In this document: positions 6,476 through 63,422 of the stretch, piece after piece | Layout: each line of letters opens with the position of its first letter | Numbering within the stretch: position 1 is the first letter of the stretch | Assembly: GCA_021825585.1 (NCBI GenBank) | Contig: JAKAGT010000022.1 | Coordinates: 2,807 to 66,806, forward strand | Direction of reading: 5' to 3' | Source: Bacteroidota bacterium | Lineage (GTDB): Bacteria > Bacteroidota > Ignavibacteria > Kryptoniales > JAKASW01 | DNA: 64,000 nt | Notes under the pieces: generated by a model | Told to the model about the DNA's origin: nothing | Seen by the model: only the letters and a program-made list of their open reading frames with translations | Database searches by the model: none | Position numbers and translations under genes: made by a program

Positions 6476-7723
6476 TCACTCATACCGTAGAGACTCTATT
6501 GGATCCACGCTCGCCGCCTTGTATGCCGGGTAAACACCGAATATCACACCGACAAGCGAGCAGACGATAAGGCCGATCATAGCCCAATCAAGAGGAAATG
6601 CCGCCCTCATGTGCATCGCCAATGCAGCGAGATTGCCTCCGATAAGGCCAAGCAAGACGCCGACTATGCCTCCTACCTCGCAAAGCACAATCGCTTCGAG
6701 CATGAATTGGGTCAGGATATTGCGCTTCGTAGCACCAATGGATTTCCTCACGCCTATTTCTCGGGTTCGTTCGGTCACACCCACGAGCATTATGTTCATT
6801 ATTCCGACGCCGGCCGCAAGAAGCGCTATCGCACTTACCACAATAGCTCCTATCCTGATGTAGAAAGTCAGGTGATTGAACTGGTCGATCAGTGAAGCAT
6901 TGGAAATCATTTCGAAATCATCCGGCTTTCGCGGCGGGACATTCCTGATCGCCCGGAGAATCGCCTCCACCTGGTCTTCGGTCTCGGCAAAAGTTTTCTG
7001 ACTACTTGACTGAACGTAAATATCAAGACTCCTTCGTTCTCCGTAACGGGCAAAGAAAGTAGTAAGCGGTACCATCATGTATGGGTTTCCTTCACCGAGC
7101 ACTGTCCCCTGGTTCTTTATGACGCCTACGACGGTGTAACCGATTCCATCCACTTTGACCTGCTGTCCAAGCGGATCGGAATGCGGGAAAAGAGCGCCGG
7201 CCATGTTCGGGTCGATTACACAGGCGAGACGTGAAACGTCGAGGTCACTCTGGGTTATCGCCCTGCCTTCACCGATCGGTTTGTCTTGCGCGGTGAAAAT
7301 CTCGGGCGTGACGCCCATCAGGTCCACATTCGGGTTCGTTGATTGTTGGCCGTGTACGGCGATCATTCCGCCCTTGTCTGCCATGGCACCCACGCTGCTC
7401 GCCATAGTCGCCCGATTTCTCAGTTTGATCACATCCTCATACGTGAGATCCTTCCGGTTCCAGTACTTCCTCCACCACCCCGGCCCACCGGCGTGGAAGA
7501 CCGGAAATTTCGTTATTTCGAACGTGTCTGAGCCTAGTGAGTTGAGTCTGCTCTCGATTGAGTTCTGCATAACCCGCATCGCGGTGGTCACAGCTATGAT
7601 TGAGAAAACCCCCACGACGATGCCGAGAAGAGTCAGGATAGACCGCAGCTTGTTCGAGCGGATGGCTGCAAGCGCCATCAGGAAACTTTCCGACCATTCC
7701 GACCAGATGATGTTCCTATTCAT
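6476..7723 (-). CDS. MacB-type ABC transporter permease (FtsX domain + periplasmic domain), B-type, pair 3
   Basis: 415 aa. N-terminal TM, ~230-aa periplasmic segment, then a C-terminal 3-TM FtsX module (LLAAGVGIMNIMLVGVTERTREIGVRKSIGATKRNIL). Ends AASVDPIESLRYE. The start overlaps the A3 stop by 8 nt. Confidence 0.85.
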   Translation of the reverse strand: MNRNIIWSEWSESFLMALAAIRSNKLRSILTLLGIVVGVFSIIAVTTAMRVMQNSIESRLNSLGSDTFEITKFPVFHAGGPGWWRKYWNRKDLTYEDVIKLRNRATMASSVGAMADKGGMIAVHGQQSTNPNVDLMGVTPEIFTAQDKPIGEGRAITQSDLDVSRLACVIDPNMAGALFPHSDPLGQQVKVDGIGYTVVGVIKNQGTVLGEGNPYMMVPLTTFFARYGERRSLDIYVQSSSQKTFAETEDQVEAILRAIRNVPPRKPDDFEMISNASLIDQFNHLTFYIRIGAIVVSAIALLAAGVGIMNIMLVGVTERTREIGVRKSIGATKRNILTQFMLEAIVLCEVGGIVGVLLGLIGGNLAALAMHMRAAFPLDWAMIGLIVCSLVGVIFGVYPAYKAASVDPIESLRYE

Positions 7724-8939
7724 ATCTCAGCGCCTCCACCGGATCGAGTTTAGAGGCCCTTGATGCAGGTACAATGCCTGAGATCACGCCGACCGCAAGC
7801 GATATCAAGATGCCAAGGAACGCAAGAGAGATCGGCATCGACGTCGGAAGGAACTTGTCGACAAGCATGCTCAGCGGGTAAGAGAACGCGAGTCCTATCA
7901 ATCCTCCTCCCAGACAGATGAGCGACGATTCGATCAGGAACTGTACCAGTATGGTTCGCCTCTTTGCGCCGAGTGCTTTCCTGATTCCGATTTCTTTTGT
8001 CCTTTCCGTCACGCTCACGAACATGATGTTCATTATGCCGATGCCTCCCACAAAGAGCGACAGCGCAGTAATAAACAGCCCCACCGCGCCTATTATGGCT
8101 GCGATTCTGTCGAAGGCGCTCGTAAGGAGGCTCTGCTCGTTTATCGAGAAATCGTCCTTCTGAAACGGCGACAACCCTCTAATCTTCCTCATTATCCCGC
8201 GAAGCTCCTCCTTTGCATTTGCCAGCTCTTTCGGGTTCGCGACGCGCGCCTCGATACTCGGAAAGAAATGTCTCCCGTAAATATTGCGGAACTGATCTAT
8301 AGGTATGATGACTTCGTTGTCGAGGCTGAACATTCCCATAAAGCTTCCCTGCTTGCTTCTCACGCCGATGACCCTGAACGATAGCCCATCTATTTTGATG
8401 GTACTTCCGATCGGGTCCCGGTTTGGAAACAGTTGATTGGCGACATCCGCACCGAGAATCGTGACCGGCATGTCCCCACTGGCTTCCATATCCGTGAAAA
8501 AGCGTCCCTCGCTGAAATCCATCTTCGCGACGTAGGCGTAATCGGCAGTCGTCCCTTCGACCAAAACATTTTGCGCCGACCTGTTTCTATATCCGATTGT
8601 CCCGAGTCTCTGGACTACAGGGGCAACGGCCGCGAACAAGGTCCCTTCTTTCTTGATCTCATTGACGTAGTAAACGTGAATCCTGCGGCGGTCCCTGTAT
8701 TTCCACCACAAACCGTTGTTGAGCCACGGCCACTTCTGGACATACAGCACGTCCGCGCCGATCGATGAAATGCTCTTATTGAATGCCTGCGTAAGCCCGT
8801 CTATGGCCGAGCCCATTAATGTAACCGAGACGATTCCTATAATGATGCCGAGCATGGTCAGTACCGCTCTTACTTTGTTTGCCATCAGAGCTGCGAAGGA
8901 GAGCTTGAACCCCTCCTTGATTTCAAGGCCAAACGTCAT
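7716..8939 (-). CDS. MacB-type ABC transporter permease, A-type, pair 3
   Basis: 407 aa. Begins MTFGLEIKEG. FtsX block [31 protein letters not shown]. Ends [13 protein letters not shown]. Confidence 0.85.
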   Translation of the reverse strand: MTFGLEIKEGFKLSFAALMANKVRAVLTMLGIIIGIVSVTLMGSAIDGLTQAFNKSISSIGADVLYVQKWPWLNNGLWWKYRDRRRIHVYYVNEIKKEGTLFAAVAPVVQRLGTIGYRNRSAQNVLVEGTTADYAYVAKMDFSEGRFFTDMEASGDMPVTILGADVANQLFPNRDPIGSTIKIDGLSFRVIGVRSKQGSFMGMFSLDNEVIIPIDQFRNIYGRHFFPSIEARVANPKELANAKEELRGIMRKIRGLSPFQKDDFSINEQSLLTSAFDRIAAIIGAVGLFITALSLFVGGIGIMNIMFVSVTERTKEIGIRKALGAKRRTILVQFLIESSLICLGGGLIGLAFSYPLSMLVDKFLPTSMPISLAFLGILISLAVGVISGIVPASRASKLDPVEALRYE

Positions 8940-9194
8940 TTCAATATGTCCCTTTCTGATTCAACGCCACTACCTTTTTCGCACGCGCCGAAGCGTACTT
9001 CACCTTCGGTCTTTCACAATCGCCTGAAAAACTCAGATGCTATCCTAACACACCGATTGCGTCCGAGGTTTCTCGCGAGTGCGAACAACGGGGTTCTTTA
9101 ATTCGATTTGAATTTCGAAAAGCTTCCATCTCCTCGAGCGAAGAGATTCGTCCGTCAGGTAGTGCTTTCGCAATCATGTTTGTTGGTTCTTCTG

Positions 9195-9225
9195 AAAAAA
9201 ATTGGAGAGCTCCGAGAAGCTCCCG
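9195..9225 (-). terminator. candidate rho-independent terminator after permease pair 2
   Basis: The minus strand reads CGGGAGCT-TCTCGG-AGCTCTCC, an 8-bp stem with one G-U pair and a 6-nt loop. It is followed by AATTTTTTT. It lies ~63 nt downstream of the B2 stop (9288). Confidence 0.55.
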
Positions 9226-9287
9226 CCAGTTAAATGGTCCTTCTAATATCTCAAGAATTCAATCCCGCACACGGCGTCATTTCGTCC

Positions 9288-10520
9288 CTACTCGTATCTC
9301 AGGGACTCGATCGGGTCAACGCTGGCCGCCTTGTAGGCAGGGTAGACGCCGAATATCACTCCGACTAGCGAGCAGACAATGAGGCCGATTGTGGCCCAAT
9401 CGACCGGGAATACCGCCTGAAGATGAAGTATTACCGCCGCAAGGTTGCCGCCGATCAAACCGAGCAGGATGCCGGCGATTCCCCCGACTTCACAGAGCAA
9501 TACCGCCTCGAGCAGGAACTGGATCAGGATATTCCGCTTTGTGGCACCGACTGATTTTCTGATGCCGATCTCTCTCGTCCTTTCGGTCACGCCAACAAGC
9601 ATAATGTTCATTATGCCGACTCCGGCGGCAAGCAAGGCAATCGCGCTCACCGCGATGGCGCCGATTCTTACATAGAAGGTAACTTCGTTGAACTGGCCGA
9701 CTAACGACGCATTTGAAATGATGTCGAAATCGTTATCCTTTCCCGGTGGAACTTTTCTTATGGCCCGGAGGATACCTATCGTTTGTTCCTGTGCTTGCGC
9801 CAGGGCATCCTGGCTTACGGCTTGCACGTAAATGTTCATGCTCCTTTCCTTGCCGTACCTGGCGAAGAAAGTCGTGATTGGGACTTCCAGGTAATATTGC
9901 TGACCGATCGTGATACCCTGATCCTCGATGACTCCAACTACGATATATCCTATTCCGCCGACCGTGACAACTGCTCCCAATGGATCGGAATGAACAAACA
10001 GGGCCTTCGCCAGGTTGGGATCGAGGACGCACACGCGGCTTCCCGTTTCAATATCGCTTTCGCTTATTCCTCTTCCCTCAGTCATCTTCTCGTTGCGGGC
10101 AGCGGAAATATCCGGCGTCACTCCAAGCAAGCTCACGTTAGGATTTGTTTTCTCGTCGCGATACTGCACTATCTTTCCTCCAGTCCCGGTCAACACTCCG
10201 ACGCTCTTCGCCAATGTTGCTCTCTCCTTAAGAGCGATTGCCTGCTCAAAGGTTATGTCCTTTCGATTCCTGTACTTGTCCCAGTCGGTGAAGAAGGCGG
10301 GGAATTTCCGTACCATGAACACATTCGATCCCATCGAGGTCAGTTTCGATTCGACAAAGCTCTGGAGTACTCTCATTGCAGTGTTGACGGCAATGATGGA
10401 AAAGACCCCGACGACGATTCCCAAAAGGGTCAAACTGGAACGCAGCTTGTTAGACCGAATCGCAAAAAGAGCCATTGAAAGGCTTTCACTCCATTCGGAA
10501 ACGATAAAACTCTTATTCAT
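9288..10520 (-). CDS. MacB-type ABC transporter permease, B-type, pair 2
   Basis: 410 aa. Begins MNKSFIVSEWSES and ends AASVDPIESLRYE. Same FtsX block as B1/B3. It lacks the HAGGPGWW segment of B1/B3 (FPAFFTDWDKYRNRKD). Confidence 0.85.
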   Translation of the reverse strand: MNKSFIVSEWSESLSMALFAIRSNKLRSSLTLLGIVVGVFSIIAVNTAMRVLQSFVESKLTSMGSNVFMVRKFPAFFTDWDKYRNRKDITFEQAIALKERATLAKSVGVLTGTGGKIVQYRDEKTNPNVSLLGVTPDISAARNEKMTEGRGISESDIETGSRVCVLDPNLAKALFVHSDPLGAVVTVGGIGYIVVGVIEDQGITIGQQYYLEVPITTFFARYGKERSMNIYVQAVSQDALAQAQEQTIGILRAIRKVPPGKDNDFDIISNASLVGQFNEVTFYVRIGAIAVSAIALLAAGVGIMNIMLVGVTERTREIGIRKSVGATKRNILIQFLLEAVLLCEVGGIAGILLGLIGGNLAAVILHLQAVFPVDWATIGLIVCSLVGVIFGVYPAYKAASVDPIESLRYE

Positions 10521-10628
10521 GCATCAACATCCCCCATCGCCGGCAAGGACAAACTGCTGAAGATGCAAAATGCGGGAAGAAGGCAAGCATCGGTGGAAAC
10601 GTCCCTGCCATCTAAATCTCTCATGTTT

Positions 10629-11855
10629 CTACTCATAGCGCAGAGCCTCTACCGGATCAAGTTTAGATGCCCTTAATGCGGGAACAATCCCAGATACAAC
10701 GCCAACGACAAGCGAGATGATTATTCCCGTTACGGCAATCGAGATGGGCATCGCCGTGGGCAGAAAATTATCCAGAAGCTCGCTCAATGGATAAGAAAAC
10801 GCGAGCCCAAGTATTCCCCCTCCGAGACAGATGAGCGTTGCCTCGGTCAGGAACTGCATCAGAATGGTCCGCCTTCTCGCGCCGAGCGCTTTCCTTATTC
10901 CTATCTCCTTCGTACGCTCCGTCACGCTCACGAACATGATATTCATTATTCCGATGCCGCCTACAAAGAGCGATAGCGCAGTGACAAATAATCCAATAGC
11001 ACCGACATACAAGATCATCTGGTCGAAGGCATTTGTAAATGCGGTCTGTTGATTGATCGAAAAATCATCCTCCTCACCGGGCGAAAGGCCCCTGATTTTT
11101 CGCATTAATCCGCGCACCTCTTCCTTTGCATTATCCAGATCAACATCCTCAGCCGCGCGCACGCTGATCGTTGCGGAGAAGCGGCTCCCAAATATCTTCT
11201 CGAACTGACCAATAGGCACGTACACAACATTGTCCAGGCTGAACAATCCCAGAACACTTCCCTGAGTACTTCTGATGCCGATCACACGAAACGGGAGCCC
11301 GTTTATCCTGATCATCTTCCCGAGCGGATCCTGATTTGGAAAAAGAAGGTTCGCTACATCCCGCCCGATCACAGCGATCGGCCTGCTGCCGCGGGATTCT
11401 TCTTCGCCGAAAAATCTTCCTCCATCAAAACTCATGCTTGTCACATAAGCGTAATCAGAAGTCGTCCCATCGATATCGACATTGTTTGCCACTTTGTTTC
11501 CGTACCTGACCTTTGCATTTCTGTCGGCTTCCGGCGCGACTGCAGCAACAAGCGTCGCCTCTTCTCTGATTCTGTCGGCGTATTCGGCCTTCAGTGGTTT
11601 ACGATTGCGGTATTTCCACCACTCGCCGCCGCCAAATCCCCACTGCCATTTGTCGACGTATAGTACGTCGGCGCCCATGAATGCAAAACTCTTGTTGAAT
11701 TCCCTCGTCAGTCCTTCAATTGCGGCCCCCATAAGTGTGACCGAAACGATGCCGATTATGATCCCCAACATGGTAAGAACCGCGCGGCCCTTGTTTGCCA
11801 TCAGCGCGGCGAAAGAAAGCACAAGCCCTTCTTTGAACTCAGTCCCAAAAGTCAT
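10629..11855 (-). CDS. MacB-type ABC transporter permease, A-type, pair 2
   Basis: 408 aa. Begins MTFGTEFKEG and ends [13 protein letters not shown]. Identical [31 protein letters not shown] block. A 108-nt spacer separates it from B2, whereas the other two pairs overlap by 8 nt. Confidence 0.85.
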   Translation of the reverse strand: MTFGTEFKEGLVLSFAALMANKGRAVLTMLGIIIGIVSVTLMGAAIEGLTREFNKSFAFMGADVLYVDKWQWGFGGGEWWKYRNRKPLKAEYADRIREEATLVAAVAPEADRNAKVRYGNKVANNVDIDGTTSDYAYVTSMSFDGGRFFGEEESRGSRPIAVIGRDVANLLFPNQDPLGKMIRINGLPFRVIGIRSTQGSVLGLFSLDNVVYVPIGQFEKIFGSRFSATISVRAAEDVDLDNAKEEVRGLMRKIRGLSPGEEDDFSINQQTAFTNAFDQMILYVGAIGLFVTALSLFVGGIGIMNIMFVSVTERTKEIGIRKALGARRRTILMQFLTEATLICLGGGILGLAFSYPLSELLDNFLPTAMPISIAVTGIIISLVVGVVSGIVPALRASKLDPVEALRYE

Positions 11856-12342
11856 GCTTCACCATCCCGTATTAGTCTGCCACAAAATTTGGCCGTCTGT
11901 CCGCTTCCCACATTTTATTCCCCTCGCACTGCGTATTTCAGGCGGAATCGGAACGTTGCGGGAGACCGATCTCGCATTGTGGAATGCGCGGGTGCCGTCA
12001 TGATTCAACGGGCGGAAATCCAGAACCCTCGTCGATTTTCGCGAGAGTAAACTGTCCTCTGCAGGACAAGTGTCTGATAATTTCATCTGCATGGCCGCAT
12101 CATTCATGAATAATGATCAAGAACTTCATCATAGTCACTTCCCGGCAATGTTTCCGGAAAAAATAACCTAAAGTCCCGGCCCTACTCCAGCTCTATCTAT
12201 GGAAGCCTTGCCGGTCCCTCGGATGATAACCGGCAAGGTACGAAATCATCCATGGATCAATCTCCGGACCCGGTACTCCGGCTTTTGAGATTCTCAATCC
12301 CTTTTCAAAGACTTGATTCCATGGTTCGGGGTCTCATCATTT

Positions 12343-13590
12343 CTATTCATATCTCAACGATTCGATCGGATCGACGCTGGCCGCCTTATATGCGGGGTAA
12401 ACGCCGAACGTGACGCCGACTATTGAGCAGACTACCAGCCCAATCACCGCCCAATCCATCGGGAAGGCCGCATGCATATGTAACGCAAGAGCTGCAAGGT
12501 TGCCGCCGATGAGGCCGAGCAAGATGCCTGCCACTCCCCCGACTTCACACAGCACTATGGCTTCGAGCAAGAATTGTGTCAGGATATTGCGCTTGGTTGC
12601 ACCGACGGATTTCCTTACCCCGATCTCACGGGTCCGTTCCGTCACTCCGACCAGCATTATGTTCATAATACCGACACCGGCGGCAAGCAGTGCAATTGCA
12701 CTCACAACTATCGCACCAATTCTTATGTAGAAGGTCATCTGGTTGAATTGATCTATCAATGATGCGTTGGTGGTCAATTCGAAGTCATCATCCTTGCCGG
12801 GGGGCACTCCCCTGATTGCCCTGAGAATTGCCTCTGTCTGTTCCTGCGCGGCTGTGAAGTCTTTCTGGTCGATTGCCTGGACGTATATATCGAGACTCCT
12901 TTCCTTGCCGTATCTGGCGAAGAAAGTGGTAATTGGAACGATCATGTACGGCGAGCCTTCACCAACAACATTCCCCAGGTCCTTTATCGTGCCGATCACA
13001 CGATAGCCTATTCCATCCAGTTTTATCTCGGCGCCCAACGGGTCCGAATGTGGAAAGAGGGCCTTGATTAGATTAGGATCGATTACACAAACCAGCCTCC
13101 CGATTTCGAGATCGCTCTGGCTGATCGCTCGTCCTTCGTCGATCTCCTTGTTCTGAGCTGCAAAAATGTCGGGAGTGACTCCGATAATGTCCACATTGGG
13201 GTTTGTCTGTTCGGCCTTATAGGTAACGATTTTGCCGCCTCTGTCTGCTTCAGCCCCGACACTGCTTGCAAGCGTTGCCCGCTCTTTCAATTTGAGAACC
13301 TGTTCGTATGTCAGATCCTTACGGTTCCTGTATTTCCGCCACCACCCCGGCCCTCCGGCATGGAACACCGGAAATTTTGTAATCATGAATACATTCGAAC
13401 CTAAAGAGTTCAATTCGCTCTCGATGTTGTTCTGCAGGACACGCATAGCGGTCGTGACGGCAATGATCGAAAATACCCCGATCACGATTCCGAGGAGCGT
13501 CAATATCGAGCGGAGTTTATTTGAACGGATAGCCGCAAGAGCCATCATGAAACTCTCGGACCATTCGGACCAAAGGAAAGTTCTATTCAT
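12343..13590 (-). CDS. MacB-type ABC transporter permease, B-type, pair 1
   Basis: The ORF track gives 12343..13656. I place the start at Met23 ([13 protein letters not shown], complement of 13590-13588). That matches the B2/B3 N-termini and reproduces the 8-nt overlap with the A-type stop seen in pair 3. Confidence 0.85.
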   Translation of the reverse strand: MNRTFLWSEWSESFMMALAAIRSNKLRSILTLLGIVIGVFSIIAVTTAMRVLQNNIESELNSLGSNVFMITKFPVFHAGGPGWWRKYRNRKDLTYEQVLKLKERATLASSVGAEADRGGKIVTYKAEQTNPNVDIIGVTPDIFAAQNKEIDEGRAISQSDLEIGRLVCVIDPNLIKALFPHSDPLGAEIKLDGIGYRVIGTIKDLGNVVGEGSPYMIVPITTFFARYGKERSLDIYVQAIDQKDFTAAQEQTEAILRAIRGVPPGKDDDFELTTNASLIDQFNQMTFYIRIGAIVVSAIALLAAGVGIMNIMLVGVTERTREIGVRKSVGATKRNILTQFLLEAIVLCEVGGVAGILLGLIGGNLAALALHMHAAFPMDWAVIGLVVCSIVGVTFGVYPAYKAASVDPIESLRYE

Positions 13591-14806
13591 ACCGGAGTGC
13601 CTCCACAGGATCCAGTTTTGACGCCCTGGATGCCGGGATAATCCCCGAGACCACACCGACTGCGAGCGACAACAGGATCCCTATAAACGCAAGCGAGATC
13701 GGCATCGCGGTAGGCAGGAACTTGTCGACGAGCATGCTTAATGGATAGGAGAATGCCAGCCCGATGAGCCCGCCGCCCAGACAAATCAATGACGATTCGA
13801 TAAGGAACTGTATGAGAATCGTGCGCCTCTTTGCTCCGAGTGCTTTCCTGATGCCGATTTCTTTTGTACGCTCGGTCACGCTCACGAACATAATATTCAT
13901 TATGCCGATCCCGCCGACAAATAGCGAAAGAGCAGTCACAAATATCCCGACTCCTCCGATGATACCCGCTATCTTGTTGAATGCATTCGTCAGAAGGTCC
14001 TGCTGGTTGATCGAGAAATCGTCCTCTTGAGAAGGAGACAATCCTCTTATCTTCCTCATGATTCCACGGAGTTCTTCCGTGGCATTGTCCATGTTCTTCG
14101 GATCGGAAACGCGCGCTTCTATCGTAGGATGAAAGTGTGTTCCGTAAATGTTCTGGAATTGCCCTATCGGAATAATCACCTGGTTATCGAGGCTGAACAT
14201 TCCGAGGAAACTCCCCTGCTTGCTCCTGACGCCGATTATTCTGAACGGCAGGCCGTTTACTTTTATCATCTTTCCGACCGGATCCTGATTTGGAAAAAGC
14301 TGGTCCGCAACGTCGGTCCCGACGACAGCAAGCGGCCTGTCTCCTCTGGATTCCACGTCCGTAAAGAATCGTCCCTCTTTGAAGTTCATATTGGAGACAT
14401 AAACCAGATCAGCGGTAGTTCCCTGGACCTGCACGTTGTTTGCCGTCCGGTTTCCATACTTGATTGTCCCGAGCCTTCCGACAACGGGAGCAACCGCTGC
14501 GAAAAGCGTGGCATCTCTCCTGATCTTGTCCGCATAACCTATCTCCAGGTCCCGGCGGTTTCGAAACTTCCACCACTCGTCGTGGCTCATCCAGGGCCAT
14601 TTCTGAACATAGAGGACGTCGGCTCCGATCGAAGATATGCTCGCGTCAAACGCCTTACCAAGCCCCGTGATTGCAGCACCCATTAATGTAACCGAGACTA
14701 TGCCGATGATTATCCCAAGCATTGTCAGCACGGCTCTGATCTTATTGGCATTCAGTGCAGCAAATGAGAGCTTGAATCCTTCTTTGAATTCAGCCCCGAA
14801 TGTCAT
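13583..14806 (-). CDS. MacB-type ABC transporter permease, A-type, pair 1
   Basis: 407 aa. Begins [10 protein letters not shown] and ends [13 protein letters not shown]. The start overlaps the ATPase stop by 4 nt. Confidence 0.85.
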
Positions 14807-15537
14807 GCCTTCACCTGCTCCGCCGGATGGCTCACCTTCACCTTCCCGTTCCTCTCGATGGGGAGATCACTCTCGACCATTCCGTCCTTGATTCTGATTA
14901 TCCTCTTGGCATGTTCCGCAATATATTCTTCATGAGTGACGAGTATGATTGTGTTTCCCTTTGCATGGAGCTCCTCGAAGAAAATCATAATCTCGTCGCC
15001 TGTTTTCGAATCCAGGTTTCCCGTCGGTTCGTCTGCGAGGATAATAGAGGGATTATTGATGAGCGCCCGGGCAATGGCAACGCGCTGGCGCTGACCGCCG
15101 GACAGCTCATTCGGCTTGTGATGGATACGCTCGCCGAGTCCGACCATTTCAAGAGTAGACCTGGCCCTCTCCTTGCGCTCCGACACAGGAACGCCGCTGT
15201 ATATCAACGGGAGTTCGACATTATGAAGCGCGTCTGAGCGGGGAATCAGGTTGAATGTCTGGAAAACGAAGCCAATTCCCTGATTACGGATCTTGGCAAG
15301 ATCATTGTCGTCCATTTCACTGACGTTGGTGCCGTCAAACAAATACAACCCGCTCGTCGGCGTGTCCAGGCATCCGAGTATGTTCATCAACGTCGTCTTG
15401 CCCGAGCCCGAAGGTCCCATGATGGCGACATATTCGCCGCGCTCAATCGATATCGAAATGTCCTTAAGCGCCTGTACCTGGACCTCGGCACCCATGTCAT
15501 ACACTTTGTTTACCTTGACTAGTTCAATGACTTTCAT
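14803..15537 (-). CDS. ABC transporter ATP-binding protein (MacB/LolD-type)
   Basis: 244 aa. Walker [11 protein letters not shown]-loop, signature [15 protein letters not shown], Walker [14 protein letters not shown]-loop LVTHE. Confidence 0.9.
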
Positions 15538-15539
15538 GA

Positions 15540-16832
15540 TTAGCCTCCGGCACCCTGCATTGCAACCATCTTGTTGTTTTCCACTCTGACCTTGGAACCG
15601 TCGTTGAGTTCTCTGCTTATCGCGACAAAGCTGCCGCTCACGACTTCTTCACCGGCTCCCAGTCCGGAGGTAATCTCGACAAAGTTGTCGTCGCTGATCC
15701 CGCGCTTCACCGGAACAGCCTTCGCTACTCCGTTCTTAACAACGAACACAACTTCCTGCTCTTTTTCGCGGTTGCCGGCCTGTTTCGCCTTATTGTTCGT
15801 GGCCCCGCTTGCAGTTGCTACCTTGCTTCCTTCCTGTGCCTTAAGCGACCTGATGGTGACACTCTGGATCGGCACCGAAAGGACATCGTGATGAGTCGCG
15901 GTTTGTATATCAGCCGTCACCGACATCCCTGGCTTGAGGTTATAGGCCTCAGGATCAACGATCTTGATCTTTACGAGAAAGTTGGTCACCTGATCCTGGG
16001 TACCAGCGCCGGTAGTGGTGCCTGAAGTGGCAATCTGATACACGATTCCTTTGATTTTCTTGTTTGGGAAGGCATCGACTGATAAAATGGAGGTGTCACC
16101 GACTGCGACGAGGACCACGTCATTTTCATCCACGTTTACCTGGGCTTCCATCGTGTTCATATTCGCTATGTCCATTATTTCGGTGCCGGCCATCATGCTG
16201 GTCCCCACGACCCTTTCTCCAAGCTTCGAATTAAGAACTGTGACCTGTCCATCCATGGGGGAATGGATCGTGGTCTTTCGAAGGTTGTCATCGGCTACTG
16301 CGAGTTGTGCCTGAGCCTGATCGACATTTGCCTTCGCCGATTCATAAGAGGCTTTGGTTACCTCATATTGCGTCTTTGCGCTCTCAAGATCCTGCTGGCT
16401 CATCAGCTTCTTCGCATAGAGCTCCTGTGCACGCTTATATGTAGAGGTGGAATTATCATAGTTTGCCTTCGCAAGCTGTTCGGAACCAAGTGCGGACTGC
16501 AAGCCGGCCTGACTCTGCTGTTGCTGCGCGATGTAGGTATCAGGACGTATCTTCACGATAACTTGTCCCCTGGTGACTCTCTGACCCTCTACAACGGGAA
16601 GATCGACAATCTCACCCGATACTTCCGGGCTGATTGCGACCAGATCCTTAGGTTCCACCTGACCGGAAGCCGTGACAACCTGCGTAATGGTGCGCCGCGC
16701 AACCTTGTCTGTTTGAACGACGATTACCGGCTCTTTCTTCCCACCAATCACTATGGCAGCCACCAAAATCACGAGCAGCAAGCCCGCTCCCGACAAAATA
16801 AAAATCTTTTTTTTCTTCTTACTCTTCGCCAT
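15540..16832 (-). CDS. efflux periplasmic adaptor (HlyD/MacA membrane-fusion family)
   Basis: 430 aa. N-terminal anchor helix. A long coiled-coil hairpin region ([24 protein letters not shown]...[16 protein letters not shown]) is flanked by lipoyl and beta-barrel-like segments. It sits between the TolC-like and ATPase genes. Confidence 0.85.
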
Positions 16833-16840
16833 TATTCGCC

Positions 16841-18193
16841 TCAGTAGTTTATAGTTCCGATAGCATACTCGACTTGTTGCTTAGCCTGAATGTATGTGTA
16901 AGCAGCAATTACCCGGTTCGACAAGTCCTGTGTATATAGTGCGTTCGCAGTCAGCACATCCAGCAAAGTAGCACTGCCAATTTTGTACTTTTCCTGATAA
17001 GTTTCCAGATTAATCTTCGCGTATGAGACTGCGGTTACCGCCGACTCATACTGCTTCTCGGCAGCATGGAGACTCAGCAACGCCTGGTAAACATCCAGCT
17101 GAACCTGCCGCCGGGTGTTCTCAAGGCTTTGTTTGGCCGACTTCACATTGACATCCGCAATCTGAATGTTCGTCTGGGTTTGGAAACCATTGAAGATTGG
17201 AAGCGAAAGGCTGAGTCCGCCGTAGAAGCTCTTGTTCTGATTTATCTCGGTGGTCTGAGGTCCGTTTATTCCATAGGTGCCGAATGCACTTATTGTCGGA
17301 GAATACGCCGCTTCCGCGATCGAGAGGGAAGACTTATACGCGTTTACATTTTCAACAGCCGCCTGATAATCGGGGCGCGATTGAAGAGCTTTTTCTATTA
17401 ACATGGCAGAATTACTGAAGTTTTCATTTACACGCTGAAACTGAGTTGTGTCTAACTCGCTGCTTATTCCGGCATCTGCAAAGGTCACGCTGTCTGTCAC
17501 CGGGATTCCCAGGTAGAATTTCAAATTTGCCTGTGCCTGGTCGTAAGCGTTCTTTGCCGTCACAAGTGAATACTCGTCATTGCTGACAATAGCCTGCTGC
17601 TGGTACACATCTGCCAGCGAAGCAGAACCTACGCTGTTTTGTTCCTTTATGCTTTCCAACTGCTGCTGATCTCTCTTCAGATTGTCTTCATTTATTTTCA
17701 ATTGATCGCGCGCATTGAATACTGTCAGATAGTTTATCGTTGTCTGGTTGATCACCGTTTGTTTCGAGCGTCTGTAATTGAGATCCGCCGATTGGCTCGC
17801 CGAGTTCGCCTGGTTCACCGTCGCATAATTTGCAAATCCGTTGAACAAGGTGTAATCGGCACTGACACCGCCGGAATAAGTCCGACTGGTCGAGCTGTTT
17901 GATACTGGTATTGAAGTCCCGCCTATGACTACATATCCCGCAGGGGACTGTCTCCATGCATACTGGAATTGAGCGCTGCCGCTGAGTGAGGGCAATAGGC
18001 CGCCGTACGCACTCATGACTCTCGCATCCTGGCTCTCAGACTGGAACTTGGCCTGCAGAAGGGTTGAGTTCCTCTGCATGGCTACGCCAATGCAGTCGTG
18101 CAGAGTCAGTTCTTTCGGAATACTACCCTGTTGTCCGAATCCAAACGGGGCAAGCGCAAAGAATACACCAATAGCCATAAGTTTCTTAAGCAT
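16841..18193 (-). CDS. TolC-family outer-membrane efflux protein
   Basis: 450 aa with a signal peptide. Two repeated halves with long coiled-coil segments. First gene of the efflux operon. GAGGAG lies 8 nt upstream of the ATG. Confidence 0.85.
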   Translation of the reverse strand: MLKKLMAIGVFFALAPFGFGQQGSIPKELTLHDCIGVAMQRNSTLLQAKFQSESQDARVMSAYGGLLPSLSGSAQFQYAWRQSPAGYVVIGGTSIPVSNSSTSRTYSGGVSADYTLFNGFANYATVNQANSASQSADLNYRRSKQTVINQTTINYLTVFNARDQLKINEDNLKRDQQQLESIKEQNSVGSASLADVYQQQAIVSNDEYSLVTAKNAYDQAQANLKFYLGIPVTDSVTFADAGISSELDTTQFQRVNENFSNSAMLIEKALQSRPDYQAAVENVNAYKSSLSIAEAAYSPTISAFGTYGINGPQTTEINQNKSFYGGLSLSLPIFNGFQTQTNIQIADVNVKSAKQSLENTRRQVQLDVYQALLSLHAAEKQYESAVTAVSYAKINLETYQEKYKIGSATLLDVLTANALYTQDLSNRVIAAYTYIQAKQQVEYAIGTINY

Positions 18194-53939: not shown

Positions 53940-54781
53940 CAGCTCTTTATGTCCTTTCTGACGAATACGAAACAGGCAATGGCAAAGAAGACAGCGTCGT
54001 ACCCTAGCAGTGCAAGTGCATATTTGCCGACTTCGCCCCAGTCGACCGGGCTGTTTAAAAGCAGCTGCCAGATGCCCATGTAGGTTGTGAATAAATACGG
54101 CCGCAGCGATTCCAGAAATTCGAACGGTAAACTCCCAATGACGAAGGATATTATCACCACGGCGATCGATCCGATTATCGGGCCGATGGAATTGTCGACG
54201 AGAGTCGAAAAAAGAAACGCGAGTGAACCGACAACCGACATCGACAATATAGCCGCGATGAATGCCAGCACAGTGCTCATCGCAGCGTCGTGCGCCGGGA
54301 GAATCACGATGTGCGGCATCGACGTTTGAAACCTTATCAGATCCCCGCCGCCGAAGAATGCGAGCCCAATCCCGATGCAGAGCGTACCCATGAACAGGAT
54401 CAGCAGAGCGGTGTAGAACAACATCGCGAAGAACTTGGCCGTAAATATCTTCGACCGGGAAGGGGGGCGTATCAGGATGAATCTGAGAGTCCCGGAAGTA
54501 GCTTCCGAAGAGACCATGTCGCCGGCGACGAGCGCTACCAGGAACGGCACGTGAATGTAGAGCGAGTTCATTATGAAAGCTGTGATCACCCATGCGTTAA
54601 GCATACTTCCGGAGATCAGGAAGTCGCCGCTCATGCCGTGCGAGAAATTCTGTGCCATCCTCGCCTCGTTGAGCTTTATGATTACCTCCAGCAAGATGAC
54701 AGCGCCTGCTACTACGACGAAGCCGATGTACGTGCGCCAGCGGCGGAAGGTCTTCTTGACCTCGATCGAGAAGAGGCTCAT
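53939..54781 (-). CDS. ABC-2-type exporter permease
   Basis: 280 aa with 6 TM helices. It overlaps the upstream ATPase stop by 4 nt. Confidence 0.75.
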   Translation of the reverse strand: MSLFSIEVKKTFRRWRTYIGFVVVAGAVILLEVIIKLNEARMAQNFSHGMSGDFLISGSMLNAWVITAFIMNSLYIHVPFLVALVAGDMVSSEATSGTLRFILIRPPSRSKIFTAKFFAMLFYTALLILFMGTLCIGIGLAFFGGGDLIRFQTSMPHIVILPAHDAAMSTVLAFIAAILSMSVVGSLAFLFSTLVDNSIGPIIGSIAVVIISFVIGSLPFEFLESLRPYLFTTYMGIWQLLLNSPVDWGEVGKYALALLGYDAVFFAIACFVFVRKDIKS

Positions 54782-55692
54782 ACTTCCGACGCTCCTTCCG
54801 TCACCTTGAGGAAGTAGTCTTCAAGGGACCGCTTGGCCGCAAAAGAGGAAACGTCCAAACCGCCCGTAACAAGAAGTTTGTTCAGCTCGGCCGCCCTACG
54901 GGACTCGATGCGGACTTCGATTCCATTCCCGACGGACACGACTTCAACCCACGGATTCTTTTTCAGAAGTTCGAGAGCGCCCTCCTGTGGCGAAACCAGA
55001 ATCGAGTAGTAAGAGGAGTCGCCTCCGAGAAGATCGGATACGGGTCCCTGCGCTATCAATTCTCCGTGATTCAGGACGGCCATCCTGTTGGCGACTGCTT
55101 CCACCTCCGTGAGGAGATGCGAAGAGAGAAATATTGTCGTGCCATGCTCCTTTGAGAGTTTGAGGACGAGCTCGCGCACCTCCTTCATGCCCTGCGGATC
55201 GAGTCCCGACGTCGGTTCATCGAGGATCACAAGGTCGGGTTTGGTGAGGATCGCCTGGGCGATCCCGAGACGCTGTTTCATGCCGTGAGAGAATGTCTTC
55301 ACCTTGTCGTCAGCCCTGGCAATGAGTCCTACAATCTCAAGCGCCTCCAGTATCTCTTCCCTTTTCACTTTGCGCGTGAGTGAACCGAGGACCTCCAGGT
55401 TCTTGTATGCAGAAAGATACAGGTAGAAATCCGGCTTTTCGACTATGCCGCAAACTCTTGAGAGCACGGATCGCCTTTCCTCCCTCGCGTCCTTCCCGAA
55501 AATTCTCACGCTTCCGGAAGTCGGAAGGAGGAGTGTCAGGATCATCCTGATCGTGGTGCTCTTGCCGGCACCGTTAGGCCCGAGGAAGCCAAACACATCT
55601 CCGGCATTTACTTCAAGGTTCAGGTCCTTGACCGCCCACCGGCTGCCGAACCTCTTGCTGAGGCCTGCAGTCCGCAATATAGCCTCTGACAT
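54778..55692 (-). CDS. ABC transporter ATP-binding protein (ABC-2/DrrA-like)
   Basis: 304 aa. Walker [10 protein letters not shown]. Signature [14 protein letters not shown]. Walker [14 protein letters not shown]-terminal accessory domain. Confidence 0.9.
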
Positions 55693-57700: not shown

Positions 57701-58321
57701 GTGAGTGATGAAGTGGCAAGGAAAGAGAACATACAAAATATCGCCAGGCGGAAGGAGCAGATCATCAAAGCTGCAATTACCGCCTTTGCACGAACCGGCC
57801 TGAAAGGTACCAGCATGAACGACATCGTTCGGGAGTCCGGCCTGAGCAAGGGTGCGATATACTGGTATTACAAGAGCAAAGATGAGCTGATATCGGACCT
57901 GCTCAAGGAATTCTTTGACCCAGAAGAGATCAAGAAGGTCGGAGAGGTGCTTGTTACGGGTACTGCTCTTGAGCGGCTGGAGAAATTCATCGGCTATACA
58001 ATTGAAGAAATGAATAAGATGCAGCGGTTCAGACCGGTCCTCCAGGAGTTGTTCGTAATAGCCTCAAGAGATCAGAAAATCAGAAAAATGGCAAAGAGGG
58101 ACTTCCGGGTCGGTGTCGCGCTTCTGCAGTCGGTCATCGAGTATGGCGTGAAGAGCAAGGAATTCCGAAAAGTAGACCCCAACATGGTCGCGATCGCGAT
58201 CTTTGAGATAATTGAGGGCACCGCCCTCTTCTGGTCGCTTGATCTTATGGATGTTGATTTTGAAAAACAGATGCGCGAAGGGATCAACCTGATTTTAGAC
58301 GGGATTAAGGTGGAAAAATGA
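57701..58321 (+). CDS. TetR/AcrR-family transcriptional regulator
   Basis: 206 aa with a GTG start. HTH region GLKGTSMNDIVRESGLSKGAIYWYYKSKDEL. Confidence 0.85.
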   Translation: MSDEVARKENIQNIARRKEQIIKAAITAFARTGLKGTSMNDIVRESGLSKGAIYWYYKSKDELISDLLKEFFDPEEIKKVGEVLVTGTALERLEKFIGYTIEEMNKMQRFRPVLQELFVIASRDQKIRKMAKRDFRVGVALLQSVIEYGVKSKEFRKVDPNMVAIAIFEIIEGTALFWSLDLMDVDFEKQMREGINLILDGIKVEK

Positions 58322-59163
58322 GCCATAAAGTAAGTACCAAGTCTCAAATAGCAAGCTGCGGCCATGTTCCAGATGTGAATTGTCGAGAATCACGTCAGCG
58401 CTTGACATCTCATTTTTTCAAAATCTGGATGTTGTTTGGGATCTGGGCGTTCGCACTGGGGGTTTCCAGCACCGGCTATGCGCAGAATGCCATGCAAATC
58501 ATACAAAGGGCTGAGGATGCAATAAAGGGAAAAGTCTCAAGCCATTCCGTCATGGAGATGACTATACGATCTCCCGACTACACAAGGACCATGAAGATGG
58601 AAAGCTGGACAAGCGGGACTTCGAAGGCGCTCGTCAGGATACTCTCCCCCGCTCGCGAAGCGGGCAACCGCACGCTTAAATTGGGAAACGACATCTGGAT
58701 GTATCTCAGGAACACCGAGACGACGATACGCATCCCTCCCTCTATGATGCTGCAGTCATGGAACGGCTCCGATTACACTTACGATGATATGGTTCGCGAG
58801 GAGACTCTTACAAAAGATTACGACATTACCCTCACAGGAACCGAACAAATAGGCGGCGTCGGTTGCTGGACACTCCAGCTAATTCCAAAGCCGAATGCGC
58901 CGGTAGTATGGGGAAAGATCATATACCGGGTACGGAAGGCCGACGATCTTCCCGAGCAGGTGGAATACTTTGACGAAAGAGGGAAGCTCATGCGGACGAT
59001 GGTAATGAGTGACTTCAAGGTCATGGGGGGAAGGATGATCCCCACCGTATGGACGATGTACAACTCAGACAGAACGCACTCGACCGAAATAAAAATGGAC
59101 GAAGCGTCGTTCGATGTCAGAATCCCGGCTTCGATCTTCTCGCTGAAGGAGTTAGAAAGGTGA
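58318..59163 (+). CDS. outer-membrane lipoprotein-sorting (LolA-like) protein
   Basis: 281 aa from the ATG that overlaps the TetR stop (ATGA). An internal Met38 (58429, MLFGIWAFALGVSSTGYAQNA) gives a clean signal peptide and may be the real start. The body (MEMTIRSPDYTRTMKMESWTSGTSKALVRILSPAREAGNRTLKLGNDIWMYLRNTETTIRIPPSMMLQSWNGSDYTYDDMVRE) matches the LolA-like family that accompanies FtsX permeases. Confidence 0.7.
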   Translation: MSHKVSTKSQIASCGHVPDVNCRESRQRLTSHFFKIWMLFGIWAFALGVSSTGYAQNAMQIIQRAEDAIKGKVSSHSVMEMTIRSPDYTRTMKMESWTSGTSKALVRILSPAREAGNRTLKLGNDIWMYLRNTETTIRIPPSMMLQSWNGSDYTYDDMVREETLTKDYDITLTGTEQIGGVGCWTLQLIPKPNAPVVWGKIIYRVRKADDLPEQVEYFDERGKLMRTMVMSDFKVMGGRMIPTVWTMYNSDRTHSTEIKMDEASFDVRIPASIFSLKELER

Positions 59164-59205
59164 CCTCGTCATCTCTCAAGTTCGGGCGCGTGCTTGTTAT
59201 CTCAC

Positions 59206-59435
59206 GCTTTCAGGGTGAATTGAGCTTTCTTACGAGTGAGGTCGGGACGGTGTCCCGGCCTCATGGATTCGACCCTTTCAGGGTCGGGTGCATATCGGAA
59301 TTACCATTTGCTTATACCACTGAACATCACCCTGAAGCTCCTCTAGTCAATTCTTACCCCGAAGGGGCAACATATTCCAGCGAGGGCGAAGCCCTCGCAC
59401 GCAATGTAAGAGGAACACCAACCCTGAAAGGGTTG
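59206..59435 (+). other. hairpin-dense intergenic element (candidate structured leader/inter-cistronic RNA or REP-like hairpin cluster)
   Basis: Long-range helix: TTCAGGGTGA (59209-18) with TCACCCTGAA (59327-36), 10 bp, plus 2 more pairs after a 1-nt bulge. It encloses a 10-bp hairpin GAGGTCGGGA-CGGTG-TCCCGGCCTC (59238-62) and the hairpin GACCCT-TTC-AGGGTC (59271-85, extendable to 10 bp with G-U pairs). Three GAA-looped hairpins follow: CCCC-GAA-GGGG (59357-67), GCGAGGGC-GAA-GCCCTCGC (59380-98) and CAACCCT-GAA-AGGGTTG (59419-35). Confidence 0.4.
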
Positions 59436-59469
59436 AAGAAACGAGTGTATCGATCAGGAACTCCAACAA

Positions 59470-60699
59470 ATGAAGCTGCTGATTAACATCGCCTGGCGCA
59501 GTCTCTGGCGGAACCGAAGGCGTTCACTACTCGTCATCGCCGCGATCGCCTTCGCGGTCATGTTTGCAATTGTCCGGCTCGGATTCGATGAGGGGACATT
59601 CGCACTTTCGCTCAGGACAGCGGTCAGGTCTTCAACCGGTTACCTGCAAATCCAGAAGATCGGGTACAACGACAACCCAACCCTGCAGAAGAGTTTCCCC
59701 ATTACGCCGGAATTAGAGTCGATACTTAAATCCGATCCGGAAATCGACGGCAGTTCGCCGAGAATACAATCGGGCGGCCTCATCAGTTTCCGTAACCACT
59801 CTCTCGGAGCGCTGATCACCGGAGTCGAACCGAAGACGGAAGAGCTGATCACAGATTTTCCCGCAAAAATCATCCAGGGGAGGTTCCTCGATGACGACAG
59901 CACGCCCGACATCGTCGTGGGATATAAGCTCCTCAGGAACCTCGGCGCGAGTGTCGGGGATTCGGTCGTCATCCTCGCGCAGGGGTTCGACGGCGTGCTC
60001 GGAAACATGTTCGTGCATATCGTGGGAACATTCAGGACGGGTTCGGATGAATTCGACCGCACCGGCGCTTTCATGAGCGTGCCGGTCATGCAGAATTTCC
60101 TTGCAATGGGCAACGACGTAAATGCGATTGCACTTTCGGCAGATGATCCGGCCGATGTCGGTAGGATCGTGAGAACGCTCGATCCGGTTCTTAAACCCGC
60201 CGGACTGGTTGCCGTGCCGTGGCAGGAACTTCTTCCGCAGCTTCAACAGACAATGGGTTTCAGTCACGCGGCGCACATACTCTTCCTCACCATACTGTTC
60301 GCCGTCGTCGGCTTCGGAATCCTGAACGCCCTGCTCATGTCTGTGACGGAGCGCTTCCGGGAATTCGGCGTCATGCTCTCGATCGGGATGTCGAACTCAA
60401 GGCTCGCGCTCACTACGGCCATGGAGATGTTTTTTATGATCGTAATAGGATTCACGATAGGCAACGCGGCCGGCGCGGCAATCAACTACCACTTCATCGA
60501 GCACCCGATCGTTCTGGGAGGCAACGTGGGAAAGTTCGTGCGTGAATGGGGATTCCAGCCGATAGTCCCCTCCTCCCTCTCGCCCGGCATATTTGTCACC
60601 GCAGGAACGATAGTGCTCGCGATCTCCGCGGCGGCCGCAGTCTATCCTCTTTGGCGCGTTGCCCGACTCGAAGCGCTGAAAGGAATAAGGTACACTTGA
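59470..60699 (+). CDS. LolC/E-like FtsX-family ABC permease, C-type, pair 1
   Basis: 409 aa. MKLLINIAWRSLWRNRRRS start with TM1. A periplasmic domain follows, then the FtsX module GFGILNALLMSVTERFREFGVMLSIGM. Ends LKGIRYT. Confidence 0.85.
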   Translation: MKLLINIAWRSLWRNRRRSLLVIAAIAFAVMFAIVRLGFDEGTFALSLRTAVRSSTGYLQIQKIGYNDNPTLQKSFPITPELESILKSDPEIDGSSPRIQSGGLISFRNHSLGALITGVEPKTEELITDFPAKIIQGRFLDDDSTPDIVVGYKLLRNLGASVGDSVVILAQGFDGVLGNMFVHIVGTFRTGSDEFDRTGAFMSVPVMQNFLAMGNDVNAIALSADDPADVGRIVRTLDPVLKPAGLVAVPWQELLPQLQQTMGFSHAAHILFLTILFAVVGFGILNALLMSVTERFREFGVMLSIGMSNSRLALTTAMEMFFMIVIGFTIGNAAGAAINYHFIEHPIVLGGNVGKFVREWGFQPIVPSSLSPGIFVTAGTIVLAISAAAAVYPLWRVARLEALKGIRYT

Positions 60700-60717
60700 A
60701 ATGAAATTCCAATTTAG

Positions 60718-60827
60718 AATTTGTTTAGAGCTTAGAGTTTCGTGCTTAGAATTTCTTCCAGTGGCACACTGGATGGTTATCTGATGATAAGCAGGATTGC
60801 CTGGCGCAACATATTGCGGAACAAGAG
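60718..60827 (+). repeat. 110-nt block, copy 1, near-identical to 63313-63422
   Basis: Direct comparison gives 109/110 identical; the only difference is C at 60731 versus T at 63326. The block covers 66 nt of non-coding leader plus the first 44 nt of the D-type permease CDS. It contains the hairpin CCAGTG-GCA-CACTGG (60758-72) and four TTAGA motifs. Confidence 0.9.
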
Positions 60828-62016: not shown

Positions 62017-62057
62017 GGGAAGAATTGTGAATCATGAATTCTGAATTTTGAATTTCG

Positions 62058-63302: not shown

Positions 63303-63312
63303 TGAGATTCGA

Positions 63313-63422
63313 AATTTGTTTAGAGTTTAGAGTTTCGTGCTTAGAATTTCTTCCAGTGGCACACTGGATGGTTATCTGATGATAAGCAGGATTGCCTGGC
63401 GCAACATATTGCGGAACAAGAG
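63313..63422 (+). repeat. 110-nt block, copy 2 (see 60718-60827)
   Basis: Same sequence as copy 1 with one C/T difference. The hairpin is at 63353-63367. Confidence 0.9.

Follow-up and report, generated by a model that had tools for sequence, protein, structure and literature searches.

Among ATP-binding cassette (ABC) transporters of type VII, MacB, FtsX and LolF are homodimers, LolC and LolE form a heterodimer, and BceB and YbbP are fused forms (PMC5985334; PMC8277102). LolCDE is the only well-described type VII transporter in which a heterodimeric permease (LolC/LolE) is combined with a separate LolD2 (PMC8277102; PMC5985334), and these two reviews describe no tripartite pump whose permease is a heterodimer or that has more than one permease pair. 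Here we analyzed a 64,000-nucleotide (nt) stretch of DNA (the window) from a Bacteroidota bacterium of the Kryptoniales (assembly GCA_021825585.1, contig JAKAGT010000022.1, positions 2,807 to 66,806), the minus strand of which carries, at 6476-18193, nine co-directional genes: a TolC-like duct, an adaptor, an ATPase and six permeases in the order A1-B1-A2-B2-A3-B3. Judging from sequence, we consider it somewhat probable that this locus encodes a MacB-type (type VII ABC) tripartite pump with a separate ATPase, in which A/B heterodimeric permease pairs share the ATPase, the adaptor and the duct. A first-pass annotation of the same DNA had proposed that three alternative, substrate-selecting heterodimers share one such chassis; we regard this as a reasonable hypothesis that is partly supported.

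The A/B heterodimer is suggested by the universal co-occurrence of the two gene types, their translational coupling and the precedent of LolCE, and the sharing of ATPase, adaptor and duct by the lack of other partners in 64 kb together with invariant docking elements in the permeases. Our confidence falls from the heterodimer, through the shared ATPase, adaptor and duct, to the idea that pump isoforms differ through their periplasmic domains or their expression.

Gene content, family assignment and fold

The features of the locus, with protein lengths in amino acids (aa), are as follows.

16841-18193, minus strand: TolC-family outer membrane factor, 450 aa; Pfam OEP; N-terminal signal-like segment; first gene of the array
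15540-16832, minus strand: MacA/HlyD-type periplasmic adaptor, 430 aa; TIGR01730, HlyD_D23 and HlyD_3; N-terminal membrane anchor; directly upstream of the ATPase
14803-15537, minus strand: LolD/MacB-type ABC ATPase, 244 aa; Pfam ABC_tran; 4-nt overlap with the A1 start
13583-14806, minus strand: permease A1, 407 aa; MacB_PCD and FtsX
12343-13590, minus strand: permease B1, 415 aa; MacB_PCD and FtsX; start overlaps the A1 stop by 8 nt
11856-12342, minus strand: non-coding B1-A2 gap, 487 nt; GC-rich hairpin at ~12213-12245 without a T run
10629-11855, minus strand: permease A2, 408 aa; MacB_PCD and FtsX; clade A2 in the tree
9288-10520, minus strand: permease B2, 410 aa; MacB_PCD and FtsX; 108 nt from A2
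9102-9224, minus strand: conserved non-coding element in the B2-A3 gap; hairpin 9205-9224, T run, then the motif TTTTGCAGAAGGACCAnnnAAnATGA
9040-9177, minus strand: short open reading frame (ORF), 45 aa, uncertain gene or leader; its start lies within the conserved element
7716-8939, minus strand: permease A3, 407 aa; MacB_PCD and FtsX
6476-7723, minus strand: permease B3, 415 aa; MacB_PCD and FtsX; start overlaps the A3 stop by 8 nt

Gene calls and Pfam agree on the arrangement given in the first-pass annotation, namely one duct, adaptor and ATPase followed by six permeases in three A-B pairs. For B1, the longest ORF begins with GTG at 13656 (437 aa) and public gene calls give a protein of 401 aa that starts 35 nt past the A1 stop; we placed the start at ATG 13590 (415 aa) since the resulting N-terminus, MN...SEWSES, is common to B2 and B3. 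The nine-gene array is identical in an independent Logan assembly (L001) and other public assemblies match over parts of it; an assembly artefact was ruled out by the divergence of the copies and the presence of the same array in independent assemblies. Searches by tblastn across the window revealed no second MacB-type ATPase, adaptor or TolC duct, and none of the intergenic gaps contained decayed remnants of an ATPase, adaptor or permease (tblastn, E up to 50), in agreement with the earlier statement that the array holds no second ATPase or adaptor gene. At 54778-55692 lies the only further ABC ATPase of the window, which shares 27% identity with that of the array.

With an adjacent adaptor and a TolC/OEP-family duct, the locus has the gene content of a tripartite pump. 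The duct scored 212 bits against Pfam OEP (cutoff 22) and 167 bits, under the cutoff of 225, against TIGR01844. The adaptor scored 163 bits against TIGR01730 RND_mfp (cutoff 94.9), followed by the MacA equivalog at 124 bits (under the cutoff of 342), and public gene calls assign it YknX-type barrel and C-terminal domains. For the ATPase, the nearest NCBIfam profiles are the MacB nucleotide-binding domain (NBD) and LolD, and its translation reads through a complete set of motifs (Walker A, Q-loop region, LSGGQ, Walker B ILADEPT and H-switch). All six permeases exceeded the Pfam cutoffs for MacB_PCD (117-157 bits vs. 27) and FtsX (70-82 bits vs. 25.5), and none attained the cutoff of any NCBIfam equivalog. 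Specifically, against the MacB equivalog NF007826 (cutoff 966) the permeases scored ~186-218 bits and the ATPase 271 bits, the NBD here being a separate 244-aa protein; against LolC/LolE they scored 25-44 bits for TIGR02212 (cutoff 362) and 21-30 bits for NF008076 (cutoff 473); against ADOP TIGR03434 they gave a partial profile match of 115-138 bits (cutoff 622) and are single-module ~410-aa proteins with an ATPase adjacent; and for DevBCA the scores were 19-27 bits for DevC TIGR01185 (cutoff 290), 56 for DevB (cutoff 129) and 202 for DevA (cutoff 296). The array has an adaptor and an outer membrane factor and no LolA gene, the LolA_like gene of the window (58318-59163) being part of another array.

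A1 and B1 matched MacB of A. baumannii, E. coli and A. actinomycetemcomitans over their full length (E ~1e-46 to 1e-52; 27-31% identity), A1 with E ~1e-51 against MacB structures and B1 with E 8e-52 against MacB, and matched LolC with E 1e-3 to 1e-5 only. In AlphaFold models (pLDDT 75 for A1 and 80 for B1) we observed a long first transmembrane (TM) helix, TM1 (~22-60), a mixed alpha/beta domain (~61-270), three further long helices and a short helix at 314-323, which is the expected topology of four TM helices, TM1 and TM2 being separated by a big periplasmic domain and TM2 and TM3 linked by a coupling helix. The top Foldseek matches were MacB (A1 vs. 5GKO/5NIK, TM-score 0.70-0.71; B1 vs. 5GKO, 0.69), with 5XU1 as the second-best match to A1 (0.71-0.73) and the third-best to B1 (0.69-0.73), and LolCDE (at 12-18% identity), HrtBA, YbbAP and BceAB ranked lower. 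The periplasmic domain of both models matched 3FTJ with a TMt of 0.82-0.83.

Two segments of each permease type are invariant across all clades described below, residues 301-320 and 401-407 in A and residues 301-320 and 401-415 in B, corresponding to the end of TM2 with the short coupling helix that follows it and to the C-terminal tail. In MacB structures the coupling helix and the C-terminal tail dock on the NBD (PMC5985334), so the invariance of these segments fits the use of one ATPase by all six subunits. The TM module had been called essentially invariant between copies; this holds for the end of TM2, the coupling helix and the C-terminal tail, but TM2-4 as a whole are only 80-92% identical.

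We also noted an aromatic/basic loop, K(W/F)P...WW.K(Y/F)RNR(K/R)D, after the first periplasmic strand (A residues 69-86; B residues 72-92), which is kept in A, in B and in distant family members at a place where E. coli MacB has an acidic loop; a deletion specific to B2 falls in it. This loop may mark a substrate or membrane contact of the family. Among the motifs quoted in the first-pass annotation, the N- and C-terminal ones and the identical TM2/coupling-helix strings were recovered, but B3 reads ...WWRKYWNRKD and not ...KYRNRKD.

Duplication history and selection

The three A permeases are 78% (A1/A3), 70% (A1/A2) and 67% (A2/A3) identical in amino acid sequence and the three B permeases 79% (B1/B3), 73% (B1/B2) and 67% (B2/B3), compared with 31-38% between A and B; at the DNA level the array repeats with a period of ~2.8-3.05 kb at 66-78% nucleotide identity, far above chance. 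Neighbor-joining trees of A and of B each resolved three orthologous clades with the same topology, ((1,3),2), and in both trees the single-pair Candidatus Kryptonia genome L037 fell outside all three. The nearest proteins are those of uncultured bacteria that go under the names Candidatus Kryptoniota, Kryptobacter or "Bacteroidetes bacterium". We counted pairs in relatives within one synteny frame (EF-G ... CCA-adding enzyme, then the pump), which revealed three pairs in L087 and L088, two pairs in L089, L090 and L007 (pairs 1 and 3) and in L008 (pairs 1 and 2), and one pair, pair 2, in L010. The congruence of the A and B trees, together with the joint gain and loss of A and B in these seven related genomes, indicates that the pair was the unit of duplication and later of loss; the tree and the survey of copy number thus bear out what had been proposed from the shared termini of the copies.

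The gene order 1-2-3 is not accounted for by simple adjacent tandem duplication given the tree ((1,3),2), which suggests either that two pairs were duplicated together and one pair was later lost, or that the duplication was non-adjacent. In L087, A1 and B1 are separated by ~815 nt (11225-12038) rather than overlapping, and blastx revealed no pump-gene similarity in this insert.

Synonymous sites of the paralogs are saturated (pS 0.63-0.90), implying that the duplications are of great age. Since synonymous divergence (dS) is saturated, the ratio of nonsynonymous to synonymous divergence (dN/dS, omega) between paralogs, by domain, was unusable and we relied on ortholog comparisons in its place. 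Between the window and L087, synonymous sites are near saturation and dN is 0.04-0.10 for each of the six permeases, with omega ~0.06 or less for all permeases where it could be computed. The identities to the L087 ortholog are 88% (A1; omega 0.02), 94% (B1; 0.02), 87% (A2), 89% (B2; 0.04), 89% (A3; 0.02) and 84% (B3; 0.03). Low dN despite saturated dS indicates that all six permeases are held by purifying selection and that none is a pseudogene; decay of pair 2 or 3, which had been named as an outcome that would speak against the proposal, was thus ruled out by the ortholog comparisons. Gene conversion as the source of the invariant TM2 and coupling-helix segments was likewise rejected, the copies showing 66-78% nucleotide identity and no high-identity tracts. 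The conserved TM region does not exceed other parts of the genes in nucleotide identity, so its unchanging protein segments reflect selection and not conversion.

These data are consistent with a history in which two duplications of the A-B pair took place in an ancestor of a Kryptoniota-like subclade: pair 2 first parted from the common precursor of pairs 1 and 3, and these two separated from each other later, all three pairs having been retained since then under purifying selection.

Proposed pairing and sharing of the permeases and their divergence

A scan of species-representative genomes yielded at least 578 relatives, of which the best 80 loci were examined; 65 arrays lay complete within the locus. 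The duct-adaptor-ATPase-A-B core operon is widespread in metagenome-assembled genomes (MAGs) labelled Ignavibacteria/Ignavibacteriota, Bacteroidota/Bacteroidetes and Chlorobi, and loci from Verrucomicrobiota are mostly without the duct gene. The 65 complete arrays were of the types AB (47), ABB (11), ABBB (2), ABBBB (1), AAB (2) and ABAB (1), plus one apparent ABA that is a frameshifted AB. All of them include both permease types, each in one or more copies, together with one pump-type ATPase, and A alone or B alone was found in none; in L065 an additional ABC ATPase gene, 40% identical, lies ~1.7 kb beyond the last permease. Extra permeases were present in 17 of the 65 (26%), indicating that additional permease genes behind a single ATPase are recurrent in this family and that the arrangement is a family property rather than a curiosity. 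One subunit type has been amplified behind a single ATPase in L013, L015, L021, L043, L051, L065, L080, L082 and others, MAGs labelled Ignavibacteria or Bacteroidota in which one A is accompanied by up to four B, or two A by one B; some of these duplications are lineage-specific, e.g., the three B genes of L021 group together.

We weighed the following model, which we consider the most likely mechanism, against other readings of the locus. With its invariant coupling helix and C-terminal tail, each A/B pair would dock on one common ATPase dimer and work under the same adaptor and outer-membrane duct, so that a cell could have up to three pump isoforms that are alike except for the permease module and there diverge chiefly in the periplasmic domain. 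Taken jointly, the A/B heterodimer and its docking on one ATPase under one adaptor and duct have, in our estimate, a slightly better than even chance of being correct, and the observations suggest that one motor and duct serve interchangeable permease modules. That the pairs have distinct substrate ranges is a separate proposition, which we hold to be possible but rather doubtful.

The copies do not diverge uniformly: as had been noted, a domain-resolved comparison placed most differences in the periplasmic domain (54-70% identity between copies), as opposed to the N-terminus with TM1 (81-89%) and TM2-4 (80-92%). We found several clade-specific features, i.e., a two-residue "PG" deletion in the loop after strand 1, plus a further indel, in all B2 orthologs; non-conservative differences at A positions 86 (D/P/R), 110 (G/D/Q) and 226 (H/S/F); and, throughout the A3 clade, a periplasmic domain that is more basic (mean net charge +4.1, vs. 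-1.3 for A1 and -3.8 for A2). Sites fixed within clades and differing between them account for 7-8% of the positions in the periplasmic domain and 3-5% of those in the TM parts. The signal of differentiation between pairs is thus modest, not strong.

Several observations weigh against three specialized heterodimers on one chassis. The ratio of periplasmic to TM divergence is 1.25-1.7 for A and 2.0-2.5 for B among orthologs, near that among paralogs (1.7-2.0 for A and 2.6 for B), and per-site variability in orthologs and paralogs is correlated with r = 0.82, so that the periplasmic bias, which the first-pass annotation had taken as a mark of substrate selection, loses that special meaning and is mostly a generic constraint pattern of the family. 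The clade-specific differences are few and mostly conservative (I/V/L, F/Y and K/R swaps), which lends weak support to distinct substrate specificity. The ABB, ABBB and AAB arrays elsewhere imply that partners need not be strictly cognate. Our census of LolD/MacB-type ATPases in this genome covers the 64-kb window.

Among the alternatives, the one that survives best, though we judge it unlikely, is that the three pairs are isoforms that differ mainly in the timing of their expression, pairs 2 and 3 being separate or separately attenuated units. Neighboring genes abut or overlap all the way from the duct to B1, and the overlaps at ATPase/A1, A1/B1 and A3/B3 measure 4-8 nt, whereas A2 and A3 are preceded by long gaps of 487 and 348 nt (A2 and B2 are spaced by 108 nt); this layout, and the little sign of specialization in the periplasmic divergence, would be expected if expression were what differs. 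The best terminator-like site of the locus, the hairpin at 9205-9224 with its T run, sits right after B2 and opens a ~125-nt element lying upstream of A3, which shares 74% identity across 125 nt with the corresponding gap of L087, even though synonymous sites are saturated. The motif TTTTGCAGAAGGACCAnnnAAnATGA also stands upstream of A3 in L090 and L007, and the start of the short ORF recurs there; ~20 N-terminal residues of the short ORF are kept in L087 and partly in L090/L007, its C-terminal parts are unrelated, and its length ranges over 43-99 aa. Three identities are conceivable for the B2-A3 element, namely a leader, a regulatory RNA and a small gene, and these features fit a separate control of pair 3. 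The consensus fold of the hairpin upstream of A3 is weak (-1.6 kcal/mol; four sequences), each genome having a hairpin of its own, without demonstrated covariation, and an Rfam scan of the locus gave no match beyond one chance snoRNA at E 0.6. Against an explanation by expression stands that no promoter was recognized in the locus: shuffled sequence contains more sigma-70-like sites than the locus, which also has no copy of the Bacteroidetes-type TAnnTTTG motif; moreover, the B1-A2 gap (487 nt) shows no conservation with L087, and the gaps are much shorter in L088.

Less likely still is combinatorial pairing, in which any A would work with any B to give up to nine permease dimers on one chassis. 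The 11 ABB, two ABBB, one ABBBB and two AAB arrays require one subunit to serve several partners, and from copy to copy there is high conservation in the TM helices and stalk regions. However, in the Kryptoniota-like clade A and B are always duplicated or lost together, pairs 1 and 3 are translationally coupled by their 8-nt overlaps, and clade-2-specific changes in matching post-TM1 segments of A2 and B2 hint at co-adaptation, all of which favor fixed A/B pairs.

The plus strand of the window carries a second MacB-type array at 57701-64000, unrelated to the first.

57701-58321, plus strand: TetR
58318-59163, plus strand: LolA_like
59470-60699, plus strand: permease X1
60742-62016, plus strand: permease Y1
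62058-63302, plus strand: permease X2
63379 to past the window end, plus strand: permease Y2

X1 and X2 are 57% identical, Y1 and Y2 69%, and X and Y 28-29%. Within the window this array has no ATPase, and L093 and L094, two metagenome relatives, have LolA_like-X-Y-ATPase as the base operon, with the ATPase at the 3' end. Taken together with the main array, the order X1-Y1-X2-Y2 indicates that tandem duplication of a heteropair occurred twice, independently, in this genome, and we counted this second duplicated heteropair family in the same window as support for shared heteropairs.

The second array, whose part within the window has no ATPase, makes trans-acting ATPases conceivable, and pairs 2 and 3 could in principle use ATPases encoded elsewhere or be spare dosage copies. 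We give this little credence, since in relatives the operons of the second array's family close with an ATPase of their own at the 3' end, pairs 2 and 3 do not differ from pair 1 in their docking segments, and dosage copies would not last as three clades with saturated dS and 20-45% periplasmic amino acid divergence. That A and B instead form homodimers, giving six homodimeric permeases as in E. coli MacB, would accord with the homodimeric state of MacB, FtsX and LolF (PMC5985334; PMC8277102) and with the equally good match of A and B to MacB, but is the least probable of all, as both types are kept at ~35% mutual identity in 65/65 arrays from MAGs labelled Ignavibacteria/Ignavibacteriota, Bacteroidota/Bacteroidetes, Verrucomicrobiota and Ca. 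Kryptonia and are translationally coupled, the pattern of LolC/LolE.

If A/B heterodimers do share one chassis, the picture of MacB-type pumps as homodimers, with LolCDE as the sole well-known heterodimeric relative, would change to include a tripartite efflux pump whose heterodimeric permease comes in multiple exchangeable forms served by one ATPase, one adaptor and one duct. With such an arrangement, evolution could broaden or retune efflux capacity at low cost, by duplication of the substrate-contacting part alone, and the copies would be natural chimeras with which to map periplasmic-domain specificity against adaptor and ATPase contacts. By analogy, and more tentatively, type VII pumps of the FCB group could be modular, a fixed chassis of ATPase, adaptor and duct on which permease subunits or heteropairs are swapped much like the S-components of ECF importers, an idea prompted by the ABB...B arrays in about one-quarter of related species and by the second heteropair family in the window. 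Permease cassettes may then be gained and lost over evolution to retune the pump, the three pairs described here being an extreme case.

Comparison with known systems

The closest solved relatives of both A and B are in MacAB-TolC (PDB 5NIK, 5GKO, 5LIL), with which the locus shares the combination of outer-membrane factor, MacA-like adaptor and type VII ABC transporter, and presumably, by analogy, the same mechanotransmission mechanism (reviewed in PMC5985334). MacB, however, is a fused NBD-permease that forms a homodimer, whereas here the NBD has its own gene, the permeases are of two diverged types, and three copies of the pair occur. In gene logic, one ATPase with two diverged permeases, the locus resembles LolCDE, but the sequence relation is only remote and LolCDE has no adaptor or TolC partner, uses LolA and has a single pair. 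Spr0693-0694-0695 of S. pneumoniae (5XU1) and YknXYZ of Bacillus likewise have a separate ATPase and permease and a MacA-like adaptor; in contrast to the present locus they have one permease gene in a single copy, a homodimer and no outer-membrane duct. In a full-text literature search of incomplete coverage, tandem permease pairs behind one MacB-type ATPase were undescribed.

Sharing of one ATPase among several transporters is known from ECF group II importers and from MsiK/MsmK. Similarly, MceG serves both Mce1 and Mce4 (PMC9947336), and in Anabaena the HgdD duct serves seven DevBCA paralogues (PMC8277102). These systems resemble the proposed pump in that an energizing or duct component is shared among alternative membrane modules; they differ in belonging to other classes or sharing the duct only, and the genes of the shared partners usually lie at other loci. 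Tandem permease heteropairs that rely on one MacB-type ATPase, adaptor and duct within one operon are not known from any of them. The nearest idea within the MacB superfamily is found in the ADOP proteins of Acidobacteria, duplicated "orphan" MacB-type permeases that are fused doubles of ~800 aa, scattered and without an adjacent ATPase. Like the arrays described here, they form large paralogous sets of MacB-type permeases, implying that ATPases are shared, but in the present locus the permeases are single-module proteins encoded within a complete pump operon.

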